Shown: positions 50,935 through 63,123 of the stretch, one piece after another
How positions within the stretch are numbered: the first letter of the stretch is position 1
Layout: each line of letters opens with the position of its first letter
From: Promethearchaeota archaeon
GTDB lineage: Archaea; Asgardarchaeota; Lokiarchaeia; Sigyniarchaeales; SOKP01
Assembly (NCBI GenBank): GCA_019057865.1
Contig: JAHLWP010000003.1
Coordinates: 1 to 64,000, forward strand
Direction: 5' to 3'
Length of the DNA stretch: 64,000 bases
Notes under the pieces: generated by a model
The model's database searches: none
What the model saw: only the letters and a program-made list of their open reading frames with translations
What the model was told of the DNA's origin: nothing
Made by a program: the position numbers and the translations under genes

Positions 50935-51573
50935 TTATTTAATCTTAATGATATCAAGCTGTTCTAATTTCTTTAATACATCAATTATTTCTGATCGCTT
51001 TTTATTTAATATTCTTGAGATTTTAAGTGGTGAATTTTTACAAGTACATTGTATCGCAACTTGAAAATCAATGTCTGATATCATCCCCATTGAGAGAACT
51101 TTTTCTAATACATTTTTAACTACTAATAATTTAGGAAACTCTTCAGCAACATGCCCCCCAATGGTTAAATTCTCAATATCTGCTTTTAATGTGTTAAACC
51201 TACTTTTTTCTGTTGTCGATCTATAAACTTTAAGATCAGATTTATGTTTTTTCCAAAAGCGATTTGCTATTTTATGAATTACTTCTTTGATCTTTTCAGT
51301 ATTATCATCGGCATCAGAAATAGAACAGAATAAAACCCGTGATATAGGATGATAATAAATAAAGATAGTTGAATCTTCTGATCCTAAGACTCTATTCATT
51401 TCATTTACTCGCCTCCCTTTAGTCATCGCTTCATGGACAAGATCAATTGTTTTATTGATTGCATTGAAAAATCCTGTTAAAATATCATCTTGAATTTTCT
51501 TTAATTCTTTGAATGTTAATTCTAAAAGAGAAATCGAGCTATCTCCATCAATTAAATATACTTTATAGATCAA
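50935..51573 (-). CDS. Longin-like domain plus C-terminal winged helix
   Basis: VYLIDGDSSISLL..DILTGFFNAI..LFCSISD (longin-like); SPLKISRILNKKRSEIIDVLKKLEQLDII (wHTH). Confidence 0.7.
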   Translation of the reverse strand: MIYKVYLIDGDSSISLLELTFKELKKIQDDILTGFFNAINKTIDLVHEAMTKGRRVNEMNRVLGSEDSTIFIYYHPISRVLFCSISDADDNTEKIKEVIHKIANRFWKKHKSDLKVYRSTTEKSRFNTLKADIENLTIGGHVAEEFPKLLVVKNVLEKVLSMGMISDIDFQVAIQCTCKNSPLKISRILNKKRSEIIDVLKKLEQLDIIKIK

Positions 51574-53016: not shown

Positions 53017-54480
53017 CTAAATATACGTATGAATTAAATCAATAAGATTCTTTGAAAAATTTGGTAGGTTTTTCTCAATTTTTTCTACATCAAGAGTCTT
53101 TTCTATAAAGAGAAGTAAATACAAATTGTACTTTTCGACAGTTATCTTTTTAAAGATTATTTTCTTGGATTCATCAGTTATGCCTGATGAAATAATAAAA
53201 TCTTTCTTCAATAATTTAAATTCTTTGAATGTTTTATATAAAGTTTCAAAATGAGGTGCTGAAATTTCAAATACCTTCTCGTAAATTTCAGATTTTGAAT
53301 AGGTTGATAATATAATACCATTTTCATTTAGCAATAATATTGAATCTGAGTTTATTTTCTTCGCGAATTTTCTTAATTGATTCCTAAACAATTCCCGGTT
53401 TGGACTTAACTGTGATAAACCATAAGAGTAAGCAGTAATTAATGACCAATGATCAAAAATAGATGTCTGAAAAATTTTTATGAAAAAAGTATCAGTATTT
53501 TCGTTGATTTCATCTGCTATAACTTCTAAACTTTTAAATATTTCTTTAGAACCTTTCAAATCTGGATCAAATTTATTTAAACAAACTACAATTGGTGGAT
53601 ACTCATCTAATTCTTTCAATGAATTCAATATATTTTTAAATAGAGATAATGCCTCCTTAATTCTTTCAATATCCTGTATATCAATAAAAAAGAACATCAA
53701 GTCAATATTATATATATAAACCTTTCCTTGTTGAAGGAATCTTTCTCTATATTGTTTTTGTCCTCCTAAATCCCAAATAGTAATAGTAGAGTTTTGTTCC
53801 TCAAAAATCTTTTCTTCTGTCCTATCAACTCCTTTAGTAGGAAGTGATTTGATAATTTCGGAGTATTTTCTCTTTACTCCATAAAGAAAACTTGTTTTAC
53901 CAGCTTTATCGAGGCCTGTTAATAAAATTTTTATCTGTTTTTTAAGAGAAAAAGGATCTTTTAATTCTTTAGTAAATTCAAACAAATCTGCTCTCAAATT
54001 AGCCAAAATCTCCTTATATTCACTAGAATTATTAGAATCTTGTATTCTTGTAGCTGCTCTATCAATAATAATCCGTAAATATTTCATATTTTCATAGAAA
54101 AATACCTTATCGTCTTCATTTATTAAAATTGTGATTGTTGATGCTAGAGCTTGACCCCGCGCTTTTGCTTCAGGGATCAAAAAAAAGTAAGTTAATCCGT
54201 TTAACTTTAAATCAGGAAAGGGTAGGATTCCAAAGTAATTAATCCCTTCTGTTCCAGTTCCGTCCTGATAAGTGCTCTCTCCCATTAAAAGTGAGATTGT
54301 TTTCATTGCGATGGAGAAACGGGCTTTATCATCTAACTCTTGAGGCCAGACTAATTTTGGAGTAGGGCCATTCTCATCAAAAATACTTAAAACAATTGAT
54401 TTTATTATGTTCTCTTTCTTATCATTTGGCTTTTCTTCAGTTGCTTTACTTTTCTTCGATTTTAAATTTGATTTAGGCAA
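53017..54480 (-). CDS. Longin(uDENN)-small GTPase-roadblock fusion with an ARG arginine-finger-like motif
   Basis: IVLSIFDENGPTPKLVWP and FFLIPEAKARGQALASTITIL; GLDKAGKTS, PTKG, WDLGGQ, NKFD, TSIFD; Rag-like C-terminal domain QLSPNRELFRNQLRKFAKKINSDSILLLNENG. Confidence 0.85.
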   Translation of the reverse strand: MPKSNLKSKKSKATEEKPNDKKENIIKSIVLSIFDENGPTPKLVWPQELDDKARFSIAMKTISLLMGESTYQDGTGTEGINYFGILPFPDLKLNGLTYFFLIPEAKARGQALASTITILINEDDKVFFYENMKYLRIIIDRAATRIQDSNNSSEYKEILANLRADLFEFTKELKDPFSLKKQIKILLTGLDKAGKTSFLYGVKRKYSEIIKSLPTKGVDRTEEKIFEEQNSTITIWDLGGQKQYRERFLQQGKVYIYNIDLMFFFIDIQDIERIKEALSLFKNILNSLKELDEYPPIVVCLNKFDPDLKGSKEIFKSLEVIADEINENTDTFFIKIFQTSIFDHWSLITAYSYGLSQLSPNRELFRNQLRKFAKKINSDSILLLNENGIILSTYSKSEIYEKVFEISAPHFETLYKTFKEFKLLKKDFIISSGITDESKKIIFKKITVEKYNLYLLLFIEKTLDVEKIEKNLPNFSKNLIDLIHTYI

Positions 54481-54603: not shown

Positions 54604-56412
54604 TTAAGGAAAAAATTTCAAACATGCTATTTTTGAGGTGTTACAAATCTTTTTTACGAAATCTTTTAAATTTATATTGTTTTTATCAAGTTCATTAAGG
54701 GAAATTTGTTCAAAAATTTCATTTTGAATTAATGGGTGGAATTCTCCTTGCTTAATTACTTTCTCATATAAATCAAATTCTATATTATCTCGAAAATGAG
54801 CAGAATTAGTATAATATTTTCTTTTTCCTTTAGAATAAGGTATTGCTAATTTTGGAAAATGTTTTAAATCTAATCTGACAAATCTATTTAATGCTTTTTT
54901 TGATGAATTTTCAATAAGCGAATAATTTTTACCTTCTTTAGAAGATAGTTCTTCACAAGTTTGAATCATTTTCTTTAAAATTTTCTTTCCTAAATTATAT
55001 GCTTCGGAATGATCATGTAATTCATAATCGGTTAGAATTTTCACTGCTTCATTTAAGCCGACAAAACTTATTGATAAATTTTGGTTTTTCAAATCAAAAA
55101 GATGGTGATTATTAATAAAACCACTACAAAAAGGCAAATGATTTGTGTTCAATCTTTTTCTTATTATATCATATTTTTTTAATAATATAACAGAGCAAAA
55201 CTTCATTTTTTCCTCTAAGATTTCCATATATTGATCTTCTTCCTTCGCGATATAGGCAAATCTTGGTAGATTTAAACAAATACTTTGTAGTACCCCAATA
55301 TTAGAGCTATTAAGTAAATTTATTTGATTTTTTAATTTAGTTTTAAACCAATTAGAACATAAATTTAGAAGATAAGGTGTTTTCACTTTTTTGATCTCTT
55401 CCCAAACCTTTGAATAGGCTGATTCAAAATCATCTAACGATTTTTCAGTAAAAAATATTTGATGTTTTAAAAAATTAAATGAATTACTTAAAAAATCTCC
55501 TTTAATAAAGACGTTAGTAAGAGTATTAAATAGTTTTAAACATTCATCATTATAATCGCCATATACCCCTTTGATTTTTCCATGGGGACCTATTGCAGGA
55601 TATTCGGAGAGATCTTCAAGGATAAATGGTGAAGTTGATATAAATGTTTTTGAGATATTACGACCAATTATTGTGGGCAATTGATTAAATTCATAGACTA
55701 ATTCCCGTATTCCATTAGTTATTTGTTCGTTAGATAAACCCTTTATATAAGGAGCAAGATAAGTAGTGATAGCAGGAAATCCTTGATTCCCACAAAATTC
55801 ACTTTGAATTAAGCTTAACCAATTGGAAAGGTGCTGAATTGCAATGTTAAAATTATCAGCTGGTCCTGATTTACAACATGTAATCTTATTTATTATAGGA
55901 GGTATACCATTCTTTAAGATTATTCGTGGATCCCAGATTTGACTTAGTGGTCTTAAGTCAAAATATTTAAGTTTATTAATATGGATATCTCCATATAAAT
56001 GCGCTTTAGCCTCATTATCATCTAAAATTCTTAATAATGTGTATTCTTCAGCTAATTGATCTGCTGCCCAATTATGTACTTTTTCAGGATTAATCACCTC
56101 TTTAGTAAAGGGTTTACGTCCTTTTTCAAGAATTTCTTCATAATCCATTAGTGGCATACCAATACGGGTATAAAGTTTTCGTTCTTGCTCAAAGTGATTC
56201 TCTGAAAGCATTGAACAAACTATTTCTCTTATATGGGGGCCAGAAAGAAATTTTATGCCTGAACTTATTATTCTCCGTACTACAAGCTCTGTTATATGCT
56301 TAGCATCTTCTTCACTCATTTTTGTTTCTTTAATAATGCTATTAATAATTTTTGAGGGATCAAATTCAGCCATGTCACCCTCTGTTCGAAATACTTTAGG
56401 TAATAAATCCAT
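54604..56412 (-). CDS. ATP-cone plus degenerate class III ribonucleotide reductase (NrdD-like) lacking the glycyl-radical domain
   Basis: FDPSKI..IREIV ATP cone; HLYGDIHI, LNLPR, SISFVGLNEAV, YYTNSAH; no C-terminal CxxC ribbon or RxxGY. Confidence 0.8.
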   Translation of the reverse strand: MDLLPKVFRTEGDMAEFDPSKIINSIIKETKMSEEDAKHITELVVRRIISSGIKFLSGPHIREIVCSMLSENHFEQERKLYTRIGMPLMDYEEILEKGRKPFTKEVINPEKVHNWAADQLAEEYTLLRILDDNEAKAHLYGDIHINKLKYFDLRPLSQIWDPRIILKNGIPPIINKITCCKSGPADNFNIAIQHLSNWLSLIQSEFCGNQGFPAITTYLAPYIKGLSNEQITNGIRELVYEFNQLPTIIGRNISKTFISTSPFILEDLSEYPAIGPHGKIKGVYGDYNDECLKLFNTLTNVFIKGDFLSNSFNFLKHQIFFTEKSLDDFESAYSKVWEEIKKVKTPYLLNLCSNWFKTKLKNQINLLNSSNIGVLQSICLNLPRFAYIAKEEDQYMEILEEKMKFCSVILLKKYDIIRKRLNTNHLPFCSGFINNHHLFDLKNQNLSISFVGLNEAVKILTDYELHDHSEAYNLGKKILKKMIQTCEELSSKEGKNYSLIENSSKKALNRFVRLDLKHFPKLAIPYSKGKRKYYTNSAHFRDNIEFDLYEKVIKQGEFHPLIQNEIFEQISLNELDKNNINLKDFVKKICNTSKIACLKFFP

Positions 56413-57624: not shown

Positions 57625-58566
57625 TTAACTTTTTATACCTAAATATTCTATAAGCTGTTTTTTAACAATATTTGCTGCGAAATTAATAATTCCACTTTTA
57701 GCTTTTGGATATGAGTAAATGACTAAAATCATATCTTTAATGCTTTGAGATTCTTTACCAATTGGAGCTAAATCTAAGACTCCTTCTGTCCCTCTTACTG
57801 ATATAGACTTTAAAGAACCAGCACTTAAACCATTAATAATATCTGCTCCAATTTGATTTAAGGTTTGACCAATAGTAGCAAATAACGTATCAGAAATTCT
57901 ATTTGATAAAGCTGATGCCAATATTGTTCCATCACTCTTTATAATTGCGGAAGCTTCGATATGAAGGTCTAATGTTAATAATTGGTTTAAAATTTCATTC
58001 ATACTAGCGGGGGGGATTTTTTCAGTTACTTGTTCTTTTTTAGTTTTAGATTTAGGTGTATCTAATTTTTTTACTGTAATTTTTTTTGATAAGAATCCCA
58101 AAACTTCAGTCATATCCTTCTCCAATTGTTTCTGTTTCATAAGTGTTGATTCAACTTCTGCTTCTGTACTTTTTGGCAATGTTTGAGTTCCTGAAGTTTC
58201 TCCACTCGGATGTAAAATAGAAACGCTATTTGATGCTATAATTGAGCTTCTATAAGGTTGTGGAGTAATCTCTTTCAAAATTTCTCTTTTGTCTTTTAAA
58301 GATTCTTCGCTTTCAGGTACAATAATTGATTCCGCATCTTTATCCATAAAATCTTCTAATATCTCATCTTCCACTTTTGGAATTTCTTGTAAATCTAAAT
58401 CTTTTAATTTCTGTCCTTTCTCTTTTTTCGTTTTAGAAACTGATACGCGCAATCGTGGTGATTTAGAAGAAACTGGAAGTAAAGCCCCACATTTCCTGCA
58501 AAATTTAACATCTTGATTTGTTGCACCGCAATTTTGACAAATAATTATGGCAAATAACGCCTCCAA
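57625..58566 (-). CDS. Zinc ribbon, disordered linker and roadblock/LC7 domain protein
   Basis: CQNCG..FCRKCG; IEASAIIKSDGTILASAL..SISVRGTEG roadblock pattern. Confidence 0.85.
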   Translation of the reverse strand: MEALFAIIICQNCGATNQDVKFCRKCGALLPVSSKSPRLRVSVSKTKKEKGQKLKDLDLQEIPKVEDEILEDFMDKDAESIIVPESEESLKDKREILKEITPQPYRSSIIASNSVSILHPSGETSGTQTLPKSTEAEVESTLMKQKQLEKDMTEVLGFLSKKITVKKLDTPKSKTKKEQVTEKIPPASMNEILNQLLTLDLHIEASAIIKSDGTILASALSNRISDTLFATIGQTLNQIGADIINGLSAGSLKSISVRGTEGVLDLAPIGKESQSIKDMILVIYSYPKAKSGIINFAANIVKKQLIEYLGIKS

Positions 58567-58801: not shown

Positions 58802-59767
58802 TTATTTGTATAAAATTTCTCTTAATAAACTAGCAAACGTTTCAAAATCTTCTTTCCGGAATATTGGATCTCCTTTAAGTAGAAGTAGATAATAGGGTGT
58901 TAATCCCTTTTTCACTGTGATCTGTTTAAAAATAAAATTTCTTCCAAATCTCTGAACTATCATTCTGTTTTCATATCTTTCTTCCATGACATCAGTGAAT
59001 TCAAATGAATCATTAAGTGTTAAAAAATATGGGGTTGAAGCGGTGAGGAGATGCTTTACTTCATCATCCTTATAATAAGCCCCAATAATAAGAGAATTAT
59101 CGTCAATCACTACTATTCCTTCAGAATTTACTTTTTTAGCAAATTCTTGAATTGTTTTTGCTATTAATTCAGATTTAGGATATAAACTTAAAAGAATTTC
59201 ACTCATTGCTGTTATAATTGAAGAAAAATCATATATCGATGTTTCATAATAAAAAACTTTTTTATAATCTGTGGCTCTTTTAAAATTCTCTTTTAATTCT
59301 AAAATAAGACTAGTCATTTCATTCTTAGCATTTCTTCTTAATGCTGGATCATATTTATGTAAAAATATGTAAATTGGGGGCTCTATTTCTAATTTTCTAA
59401 ATTGTTCAACCACATCTTTAAAATAGCTAATAGCTTCAGAAATCCGTTCTTTATTCTGAATATCTATAACATATATTGCAATTTCTGTTCCATCAAAAAA
59501 TTTACCCGGGCTCTTTAAATATGATATTCTATAGGAAAGTTGCCCTCCTAAATCCCACTCTGATATATCTTTTCCAAGAAAATTGAATATTCTTCTCTGA
59601 GCCCCTCTCGTAGGAGAAAGTAATGCGATCTTAGAAAATTCTCGCTGAAGGCTTAAAATTATTGAAGTTTTCCCCGCTTCATCAAGCCCCGTAAAGAGAA
59701 TCTTATTCTGAACTGGTTTTTCAACCTCTTCTTTTTTCAGGTATAAGATGGATTGACCTTTTTCCAA
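58802..59767 (-). CDS. Rag-like small GTPase with C-terminal roadblock domain
   Basis: GLDEAGKTS, PTRG, WDLGGQ, HKYD, TSIYD..AMSEILLSLYP; IQEFAKKVNSEGIVVIDDNSLIIG. Confidence 0.88.
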   Translation of the reverse strand: MEKGQSILYLKKEEVEKPVQNKILFTGLDEAGKTSIILSLQREFSKIALLSPTRGAQRRIFNFLGKDISEWDLGGQLSYRISYLKSPGKFFDGTEIAIYVIDIQNKERISEAISYFKDVVEQFRKLEIEPPIYIFLHKYDPALRRNAKNEMTSLILELKENFKRATDYKKVFYYETSIYDFSSIITAMSEILLSLYPKSELIAKTIQEFAKKVNSEGIVVIDDNSLIIGAYYKDDEVKHLLTASTPYFLTLNDSFEFTDVMEERYENRMIVQRFGRNFIFKQITVKKGLTPYYLLLLKGDPIFRKEDFETFASLLREILYK

Positions 59768-61620: not shown

Positions 61621-63123
61621 ATGGAAGAATTATTTGAATATTCAGTTATTAAGGGTCTTGTTTTTAGTACCTATGATAAGTTAGGTCCTCAACCATTTTA
61701 TATGTTTCCTGAATTTATCAGTGAGATTGAGTTTAAAGAGCATTCTGCAGAAATTAATGAGAAAAATCTATTCAAACTAACCTTGCGCGATTATACCCAA
61801 ATTTCAATAAAAAATTTAAGCTTATTTATAAGTGATAGAAAAATATCGAATGATGATGATTTCCAAAGCGTACAATATTTCGCAATTCTACCTCATCCTG
61901 ATTTTAATGCAACGTCATTAACATTTTTTCATTATATAAAAACTAATTTTACTGAATCTCCTCTTGCTAATAGTTTTTCTATATTGGTTGATGAAAATAG
62001 TAGAAGTTTTCTATATAATAATATAAATAGGATAAAACCACTAATTATAGAATTTTTTACTGAATTTGATAAAGAATTATTTAATGGTTATAAAAAAAAG
62101 GAAGAAATTGAACCCCTGTTTAAAAACTTGTTAAAAAAGTTAATTGAAATTGAAAAAGCACCATCAACAATTATAACCAGTAAAAGAAAAATGAAAATTT
62201 TATTTTCAGGACTCGATGATTCCGGAAAAACTTCATTTCTGTTATCAGTTGACCGTAAATACTCGAAATTAATTGGTTTAAAGCAGACAGCTGGAGCTAA
62301 AGTGAATTCTATTAAAGCTCTTGGAGCAACAATATTTTTATGGGATTTAGGTGGCCAATTAATTTATAGAAAAAGGTATCTTAGCAAAGCTCATATTTAT
62401 TTATATGAAGCAGATTTATTATTTTACTTTATTGATATTAAAAATAGAGATAGATTCGAAGAAAGTATTGATTATTTACTGAATATTAAAAAAATTCTAA
62501 ATGAATATAATCAACAAACACCAATAATATATATTTTGTCAAAAGGGGATTCAGATATATTAAATTCTGATGAAATCCAAGAAAATGCCAGAATTATAAA
62601 AAAAAAATTAAGAGAAATCAATCTTGACGATTCTCTTGAAATCTATATAACGAGCATTTTTCAAATTTTTACAATTTTAAGAGCATTTTCTTCAGGTATT
62701 TCAAAGTTAAGTCCAAATAGAGAGATAATCAATTTTAATCTTAAAACCTTTTCTATGAAAACAAATGTTTATTTAACATTATTATTAAGTACGGATGGTT
62801 TAGTTCTTGCCGATTTCTATTCTTCTGAAGCAAAAAAATTGATTGAAATTCCTGAATCTGAACTTATTAATGTTTTTGAGATTACAGCACCTCAGTTTGC
62901 AATTATATATAAAATATTTTCTAAATTTAAGACTTTACAAAAAGAAGAAGCAATTTTTAAAGTGGCTGATTCTGTAATTATCTTTAAAAAAATTAATATT
63001 ACTGATAATAATATGTTCATTTTATTTTTAGTTGATGATGAATCTAAAGAAGAACTAATTAATGAGCAATTAGACCATTTCTTAGATTACACTAAAGATT
63101 TACTCTTAAGATATATTTCCTAA
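61621..63123 (+). CDS. Longin(uDENN)-small GTPase-roadblock fusion without the arginine-finger motif
   Basis: GLVFSTYDKLGPQPFYMFP, YFAILPHPD; GLDDSGKTS, WDLGGQ, SKGD, TSIF; KLSPNREII..LLSTDGLVLADFY. Confidence 0.85.
   Translation: MEELFEYSVIKGLVFSTYDKLGPQPFYMFPEFISEIEFKEHSAEINEKNLFKLTLRDYTQISIKNLSLFISDRKISNDDDFQSVQYFAILPHPDFNATSLTFFHYIKTNFTESPLANSFSILVDENSRSFLYNNINRIKPLIIEFFTEFDKELFNGYKKKEEIEPLFKNLLKKLIEIEKAPSTIITSKRKMKILFSGLDDSGKTSFLLSVDRKYSKLIGLKQTAGAKVNSIKALGATIFLWDLGGQLIYRKRYLSKAHIYLYEADLLFYFIDIKNRDRFEESIDYLLNIKKILNEYNQQTPIIYILSKGDSDILNSDEIQENARIIKKKLREINLDDSLEIYITSIFQIFTILRAFSSGISKLSPNREIINFNLKTFSMKTNVYLTLLLSTDGLVLADFYSSEAKKLIEIPESELINVFEITAPQFAIIYKIFSKFKTLQKEEAIFKVADSVIIFKKINITDNNMFILFLVDDESKEELINEQLDHFLDYTKDLLLRYIS

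Follow-up and report, generated by a model that had tools for sequence, protein, structure and literature searches.

The window analysed here is a 64,000-nucleotide stretch of Promethearchaeota archaeon DNA (positions 1 to 64,000 of contig JAHLWP010000003.1, assembly GCA_019057865.1). The gene at 53017..54480 on its minus strand encodes a 487-aa protein in which a longin domain, a Rag-like GTPase domain and a roadblock domain form one polypeptide. Judging from its predicted structure, the N-terminal domain is a longin of the FLCN/NPRL2/SMCR8/C9orf72 class, and it carries an arginine, R108, in the loop that holds the catalytic residue of that class. We consider it probable, with a modest degree of confidence, that the protein is a self-contained switch in which R108 would serve as a built-in GTPase-activating protein (GAP) finger acting on one GTPase of a roadblock/longin dimer. 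Eukaryotic Rag and Arf GTPases are turned off through a longin-borne arginine finger supplied by folliculin, GATOR1 or the C9orf72 complex. The finger of the NPRL2-NPRL3 pair of GATOR1 is R78 and its client is RagA/B, while C9orf72-SMCR8 uses R147 on Arf and Rab clients. FLCN-FNIP2, whose yeast counterpart is Lst7-Lst4, is the GAP for RagC/D (PDB 8DHB, 6NZD, 6ULG).

The limits of the gene were taken from the open reading frame (ORF) listing, the translation and the homologues. The ORF runs without interruption from a TTG start with GGGG just before it, in a window of about 27-30% G+C. The first-pass annotation had described a putative GAP domain, a GTPase and a roadblock in a single chain, and the uninterrupted 487-aa frame does contain a longin, a GTPase and a roadblock. 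A word search recovered 529 homologues, almost all of them of about 487 aa. The top 120 are 71-99% identical to the protein, and the close ones bear the source labels Lokiarchaeia or Promethearchaeota.

The N-terminal region had been proposed to be a longin of the FLCN/SMCR8/NPRL2 type, and the structural evidence bears this out for residues 24-175 (53956..54411, minus strand). Pfam run on the whole protein gave no match for residues 1-180. The AlphaFold2 (AF2) model of residues 20-178 (159 residues) has a predicted local distance difference test (pLDDT) value of 89 and a predicted template modelling score (pTM) of 0.86. Its elements, in fragment numbering strands 7-16 and 19-26, helix 32-47, strands 63-69, 74-84 and 92-102, and helices 103-129 and 134-154, follow the beta-beta-alpha-beta-beta-beta-alpha-alpha order of a longin. 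Residues 1-178 were used as the query of an exhaustive HMMER search, which gave 111 representatives of clusters at 50% identity. The profile of alignment A1, which comprises 76 N-domain segments of this family, matched 8yqg in the PDB (E 6e-28), the solved and dimeric "Longin domain" of a Lokiarchaeota Roadblock-Longin protein.

The Foldseek comparison that had been suggested as a check placed the NPRL2 chains of GATOR1, Lst4, DENND1A and FLCN in the top ranks after 8yqg. VIA-align gave the N-domain model a Z of 18.9 against 8yqg, followed by Lst4 (13.6), FLCN (8dhb_J, 13.1, with 135 residues aligned at a root-mean-square deviation (rmsd) of 2.7), C9orf72 (12.8) and NPRL2 (11.8). The whole group of GAP longins, with the chains of the SMCR8 complex included, lies at Z 11.3-13.6. 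DENND1 scored 10.4, and the longins of TRAPP, VAMP7, Sec22 and Ykt6 scored 8-9.4, a range that also holds the AP and SNARE longins. In the ESM Atlas, the shape neighbours were archaeal longin-Ras fusions, a Heimdall cluster partly annotated as Folliculin and an archaeal cluster annotated as NPR2; all named eukaryotic neighbours were C9orf72, uDENN domains of the FLCN/SMCR8 type, SMCR8-like proteins or Avl9. Pfam Folliculin (PF11704) was matched by 32 of the 76 family members, with a best E of 9e-7, and two full-length relatives exceeded its curated cut-off of 23.3 bits (P0175, 27.1 bits; P0213, 24.5 bits). The structure scores, the Atlas neighbours and the Folliculin matches of the relatives are the reasons for which the domain is assigned to this class.

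As regards the motifs, the first strand was said to follow the GP pattern of SMCR8, FLCN, NPRL2 and C9orf72. This pattern is present in residues 29-46, IVLSIFDENGPTPKLVWP, with G38-P39 (54364..54369, minus strand) in the beta1-beta2 turn of the AF2 model, the position that it has in the class. According to PMC12290439, the GP motif occupies the beta1-beta2 turn of FLCN, NPRL2, SMCR8 and C9orf72, spatially beside the arginine finger, and it is confined to GAP longins; FNIP2, NPRL3 and the remaining longins lack it. F34-D35 stands three residues before G38, as compared with four for the WD motif of C9orf72.

The second motif is found in residues 98-119, YFFLIPEAKARGQALASTITIL. Residues 104-110, EAKARGQ (54151..54171, minus strand), form the loop between beta4 (93-103) and beta5 (111-121) in the AF2 models, and R108 is encoded there by CGG at 54157..54159 on the minus strand, the codon to which it had been traced. 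The finger R147 of SMCR8 is located in the beta4-beta5 loop of its longin and is equivalent to FLCN R164 (bioRxiv 10.1101/2020.04.16.045708), which adjoins BeF3 within the RagC pocket (PMC9473554). The placement of R108 in an Ala-Arg-Gly loop between strands, as claimed at first pass, therefore agrees with the model, and by virtue of this shared loop R108 is, at the level of predicted topology, equivalent to SMCR8 R147 and FLCN R164 and a candidate finger.

Conservation was assessed in 121 close orthologues (71-99% identity) and in the 111 distant representatives. F34, D35, P39, A107, R108 and G109 were invariant in all 121 orthologues and G38 was present in 120, while loop positions 105, 106 and 110 varied, unlike A107-R108-G109. 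Among the distant representatives, G38 was found in 83 of 86, P39 in 79 of 86, R108 in 71 of 100 and G109 in 69 of 98. Because the Ala-Arg-Gly tripeptide is invariant while its loop neighbours vary, and because arginine is frequent in distant relatives, the alignments indicate that position 108 is under strong constraint. The conservation of R108 among Asgard orthologues, which had been singled out as a test of the idea, was thus found. Human FLCN, which reads FFIKDSLARGF...SIITIM at R164 and has ELHGP close to its N-terminus, resembles YFFLIPEAKARGQ...STITIL and DENGP of the archaeal protein; this served as a lead and not as a test.

It could be argued that these motif resemblances arose by chance and that the N-terminal region is no real GAP-type longin, since the N-domain of the protein itself has no significant Pfam match. 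This is extremely improbable in view of the 111 cluster representatives and the conserved motifs, and a chance motif was ruled out by the confident longin fold of the AF2 model, the profile match to the solved relative 8yqg and the VIA class scores.

The second domain, residues 183-356 (53413..53934, minus strand), is a Rag/Gtr-like GTPase. Pfam Gtr1_RagA (PF04670) matched residues 184-399 with 93.2 bits, its cut-off being 22 (E 2e-26), and Pfam Arf also matched, with 78 bits. The motifs G1 (GLDKAGKT, 189-196), G2 (T215), G3 (WDLGGQ, 236-241), G4 (NKFD, 302-305) and G5 (TSIFD, 339-343) are intact and conserved across orthologues. The closest solved sequences were the Lokiarchaeota Rag-like proteins 8yl2 (LokiRagO, E 9e-34) and 8zla/9m28 (LokiRagM), and then Arf and Gtr1/RagA. 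The C-terminal domain, residues 362-487 (53020..53397, minus strand), is a roadblock resembling the C-terminal roadblock domain (CRD) of Rag proteins, with the topology alpha-beta-beta-alpha-beta-beta-beta-alpha in the full-length AF2 model. When this model was compared with the PDB by Foldseek, the best matches covered about 300 columns, corresponding to GTPase plus CRD, and were LokiRagO, RagA/RagC and Gtr1/Gtr2. In the same model the longin spans residues 26-174 and the roadblock residues 362-486, and only about 8 residues separate the last helix of the longin from beta1 of the GTPase.

A candidate partner for this protein is encoded in the same window. The gene at 61621..63123 (plus strand) specifies a 500-aa paralogue with the same three-domain layout, identified by sequence comparison, Pfam, linkage and a tree, which is 32% identical to the target protein across all three domains (E 9e-76). 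It has the GP motif; its loop reads KTNFTESP, without arginine, and its G4 motif is SKGD. The two genes lie about 7 kb apart. The genome that carries a 76%-identical orthologue (L001) has the same pair with the same intervening genes, and in the genome with an orthologue of 45% N-domain identity (L002) a 479-aa fusion without the arginine lies 6 kb from the arginine-bearing gene. The longin domain was found in 71 of 151 sampled genomes of the phylum, including 25 of 25 from the family of the window. In 17 sampled genomes of this family, genes with and without the arginine lie 6-20 kb apart on the same contig; these genomes are kin and do not count as independent cases.

A maximum-likelihood tree of 23 fusion proteins contained one branch, with 100/100 support, that separates all proteins with the arginine from all those without it. 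Length was the criterion by which these proteins were selected among the representatives; the tree has no root, and P0133, P0135 and P0154 are on long branches. This tree fits one old duplication with a single gain or loss of the finger. Within the same 23 proteins, whether a chain has the arginine showed no clear correlation with whether its G3 glutamine is intact.

A complex prediction with the full-length target and paralogue weakly supports their association, with a median ipSAE of 0.52 (runs 0.54, 0.44 and 0.52), compared with 0.00 for the best of three controls. Of 80 solved complexes 58 attain the mark used, as do 2 of 110 mismatched pairs, and scores of 0.60 or below hold only 7 of the 80 solved complexes together with both of those mismatches. 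The runs share at least 90% of their contacts, and the pLDDT of the partner is at least 76. Passing the mark may mirror the likeness of the two proteins to solved Rag dimers, and the score does not separate heterodimer from homodimer. By analogy, the pair with and without the arginine resembles the FLCN/FNIP2 and RagA/RagC pairings.

Taken together, these features suggest the following mechanism. The protein would dimerise through its roadblock as Rag and Gtr proteins do, most likely with the arginine-less paralogue about 7 kb away, and the two longins would pair as in the 8yqg dimer, FLCN:FNIP2, NPRL2:NPRL3 and SMCR8:C9orf72. The single R108 finger, next to the GP motifs, would then insert into the nucleotide pocket of a single GTPase domain of the dimer and stimulate GTP hydrolysis, so that the longin would act as a built-in GAP on its own chain or on that of its partner. 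Either substrate is conceivable, given a linker of only about 8 residues between longin and GTPase. The occurrence of the longin in fusions with Ras-like GTPases as well, described below, argues for a general functional link between this longin and GTPases.

Several observations weigh against such a built-in GAP. The full-length model is of moderate confidence only (pLDDT 74.5, pTM 0.67), and its short linker may preclude action in cis. The target itself scores 13 bits on PF11704, under the cut-off of 23.3, with a match that spans residues 96-153, the region of the arginine loop. Sequence searches of the PDB with the A1 family profile, the A3 profile (arginine-loop region only) and relative P0175 found only the archaeal longin 8yqg and did not reach FLCN, NPRL2 or SMCR8. 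Moreover, 8yqg, the closest solved relative, has no arginine in its beta4-beta5 loop and 29% of the family representatives lack it too, from which it follows that the domain is able to function without a finger. Finally, longin and roadblock dimers act mainly as guanine nucleotide exchange factors (GEFs) or platforms (PMC10933270).

The last three points would also be expected if the longin were a non-catalytic platform that dimerises, tethers the GTPase or binds an effector or GEF, with the Ala-Arg-Gly tripeptide having a structural role or binding something other than the gamma-phosphate. The arginine-less paralogue, which retains the whole longin domain and the GP motif, fits this as well. 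We regard such a platform as possible and worth weighing, but not as the probable function. Against it, the tripeptide is invariant inside an otherwise variable loop, and this is exactly the loop of the characterised fingers. The arginine also occurs together with the GP motif, which PMC12290439 restricts to GAP longins, and the nearest eukaryotic folds are those of GAP longins and not those of GEF longins such as TRAPP and Mon1.

R108 could also be a true finger whose substrate is a separate GTPase, the fused domain being regulatory or targeting. A candidate is the stand-alone Rag-like GTPase of 321 aa encoded at 58802-59767 (minus strand; Pfam Gtr1_RagA E 2e-26). The neighbouring gene at 57625-58566 (minus strand) specifies 313 aa that begin with a zinc ribbon and weakly match Roadblock/LC7 (E 0.09). 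Both sit between the two longin-Rag fusions, in an order that is repeated in L001, and this arrangement would suit a substrate in trans. So would the short linker, which may hinder action in cis, and the fact that eukaryotic longin GAPs always act in trans. On the other hand, fusion of the longin to two GTPase families, Rag-like and Ras-like, suggests that the fused domain is the partner, and in L002, the more distant genome, no stand-alone gene was observed next to the pair. A separate substrate is accordingly judged unlikely, and the built-in GAP remains our preferred explanation.

A further extension of the built-in GAP is that the proteins with and without the arginine form an obligate heterodimer, which would be a two-chain archaeal counterpart of the Rag heterodimer combined with the longin GAP heterodimer, FLCN:FNIP2 or NPRL2:NPRL3. 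Its single finger would act on one GTPase only and enforce opposite nucleotide states of the RagA/RagC type, and the eukaryotic Rag GAPs would have arisen by splitting of such fusions. This extension is speculative and we hold it as rather doubtful.

When compared with FLCN and Lst4, the longin of the target has the same fold (Z 12.7-13.6, 135-139 residues aligned, rmsd 2.5-3.2). It shares with FLCN the GP motif at the beta1-beta2 turn, the conserved Arg-Gly in the beta4-beta5 loop and, as predicted, a client of the Rag family, and like FLCN with FNIP2 it has a candidate partner without the arginine. Unlike FLCN, it is covalently joined upstream of its GTPase, it has neither a DENN domain nor the zinc-binding insertion, and its sequence similarity falls below the Folliculin cut-off. 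The DENN domain that follows the longin in FLCN, FNIP, SMCR8 and C9orf72 is replaced directly by GTPase and roadblock; yeast Lst7 consists of a longin domain alone, so that DENN is not universal in the class (bioRxiv 10.1101/2020.04.16.045708). The candidate partner also differs from FNIP2 in being itself a longin-Rag fusion. With NPRL2-NPRL3 and C9orf72-SMCR8 the target shares the structural class (Z 11.3-12.8), the GP motif, the finger loop and, as a prediction, the logic of a heterodimer of catalytic and non-catalytic longins, whereas those proteins occur as individual subunits within larger assemblies and have extra C-terminal domains.

Among archaeal proteins, the nearest solved homologue of the N-domain is the 8YQG longin, which differs from the target in its missing loop arginine, and that of the GTPase-roadblock part is LokiRagO (8YL2). 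The solved LokiRag chains are shorter (342 and 385 aa), and the longin region of the target did not align with them. As solved, 8yl2 forms a homotetramer and 8zla is monomeric. No relevant paper on PDB 8YL2, 8ZLA, 9M28 or "LokiRag" was found in the literature searched.

The Rag-like proteins of MK-D1, "Ca. Prometheoarchaeum syntrophicum" (Tran et al. 2024, PMC10933270), have an identical domain architecture, and the target belongs to the longin-GTPase-roadblock group described there. There, the fused longin is not assigned to the GAP type, and neither the arginine and GP motifs nor a gene pair with and without the arginine is described. The target is also similar to the Asgard GP longins of the "FLCN/SMCR8-type" (Traffic 2025, PMC12290439), which combine GP and arginine in the same structural arrangement. 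That paper covers 14 Asgard longins, proposes a common origin of Asgard GP longins and eukaryotic GAP longins, and leaves the GTPase partner, ArfR or Rag/Gtr, as a question; its main text mentions no fusions. In the fusions, unlike in those longins, the partner is set by the architecture, being Rag-like in the target and Ras-like in neighbouring genes. According to Liu et al., Asgard archaea possess FLCN-like proteins as well as NPRL2-like longins. The Rosetta-stone link drawn at first pass is therefore sound in that the fusion of longin and Rag-like GTPase is real, and overstated in its newness, because both the architecture (PMC10933270) and the GP/Arg longins (PMC12290439) are published. 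What appears to be new is the GAP-type identity of the Rag-fused longin and the linked pair of finger-bearing and finger-less genes, neither of which is stated in the papers searched.

The genome of the window (4.26 Mb, 99.7% complete) has four copies of the longin domain, all of them inside 22 kb of one contig. Besides the two Rag fusions, two tandem genes past the window end, at contig positions 73689-74738 and 74930-75982 (both plus strand; Pfam Ras E 1e-47), encode proteins of 349/350 aa in which a GP longin with the loop SRRG is joined to a Ras-like GTPase; genes of RING-like proteins follow. As the same longin is fused to Ras-family GTPases, this type of longin is not specific to Rag-like clients. 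The layouts found for GP/Arg longins are longin-Rag-roadblock (about 470-520 aa), longin-Ras-like (about 340-350 aa, the loop often being RRG), roadblock-longin (about 287 aa), the stand-alone longin and longin-Ras-TIR. The last is represented by P0190, a 525-aa relative from outside the window in which a TIR domain (Pfam TIR_2 E 7e-19) accompanies the GP/Arg longin and the Ras-family GTPase, an arrangement that recalls defence or signalling NTPases.

Ahead of its longin, the target has a disordered tail, residues 1-23 (54412..54480, minus strand; pLDDT <50), which is mildly basic and poorly conserved. Among orthologues its length ranges from 10 to 26 aa and its net charge averages +2.6. A role of this tail as a basic membrane anchor was considered and dropped on account of the poor conservation and the only mildly basic charge. 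Upstream of the target, at a distance of 123 nt and on the same strand, lies the gene of an NrdD-like protein of 602 aa with an ATP-cone (54604-56412, minus strand; Pfam NRDD E 2e-65). This adjacency was found again in L001 and not in the more distant L002. The 212-aa product of the gene at 50935-51573 (minus strand) had no significant match in Pfam or among PDB sequences. By eye, its first 120 or so residues are roadblock/longin-like and a winged-helix tail is possible (TrmB E 0.07). In L001 this gene is kept next to a transglutaminase gene.

The fusion bears on the age of the pairing between longin GAPs and their Rag and Arf clients. By its architecture, it offers an answer as to which Asgard GTPases the GP/Arg longins serve, the question raised in PMC12290439. 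The linked pair of finger-bearing and finger-less genes suggests that the asymmetry between catalytic and non-catalytic longins may predate eukaryotes. The target could also provide a small soluble system of one or two proteins for the study of longin arginine fingers as catalysts, with no need for the large eukaryotic complexes. The main worth of the fusion is as a compact and testable system for asking how Rag regulation originated.

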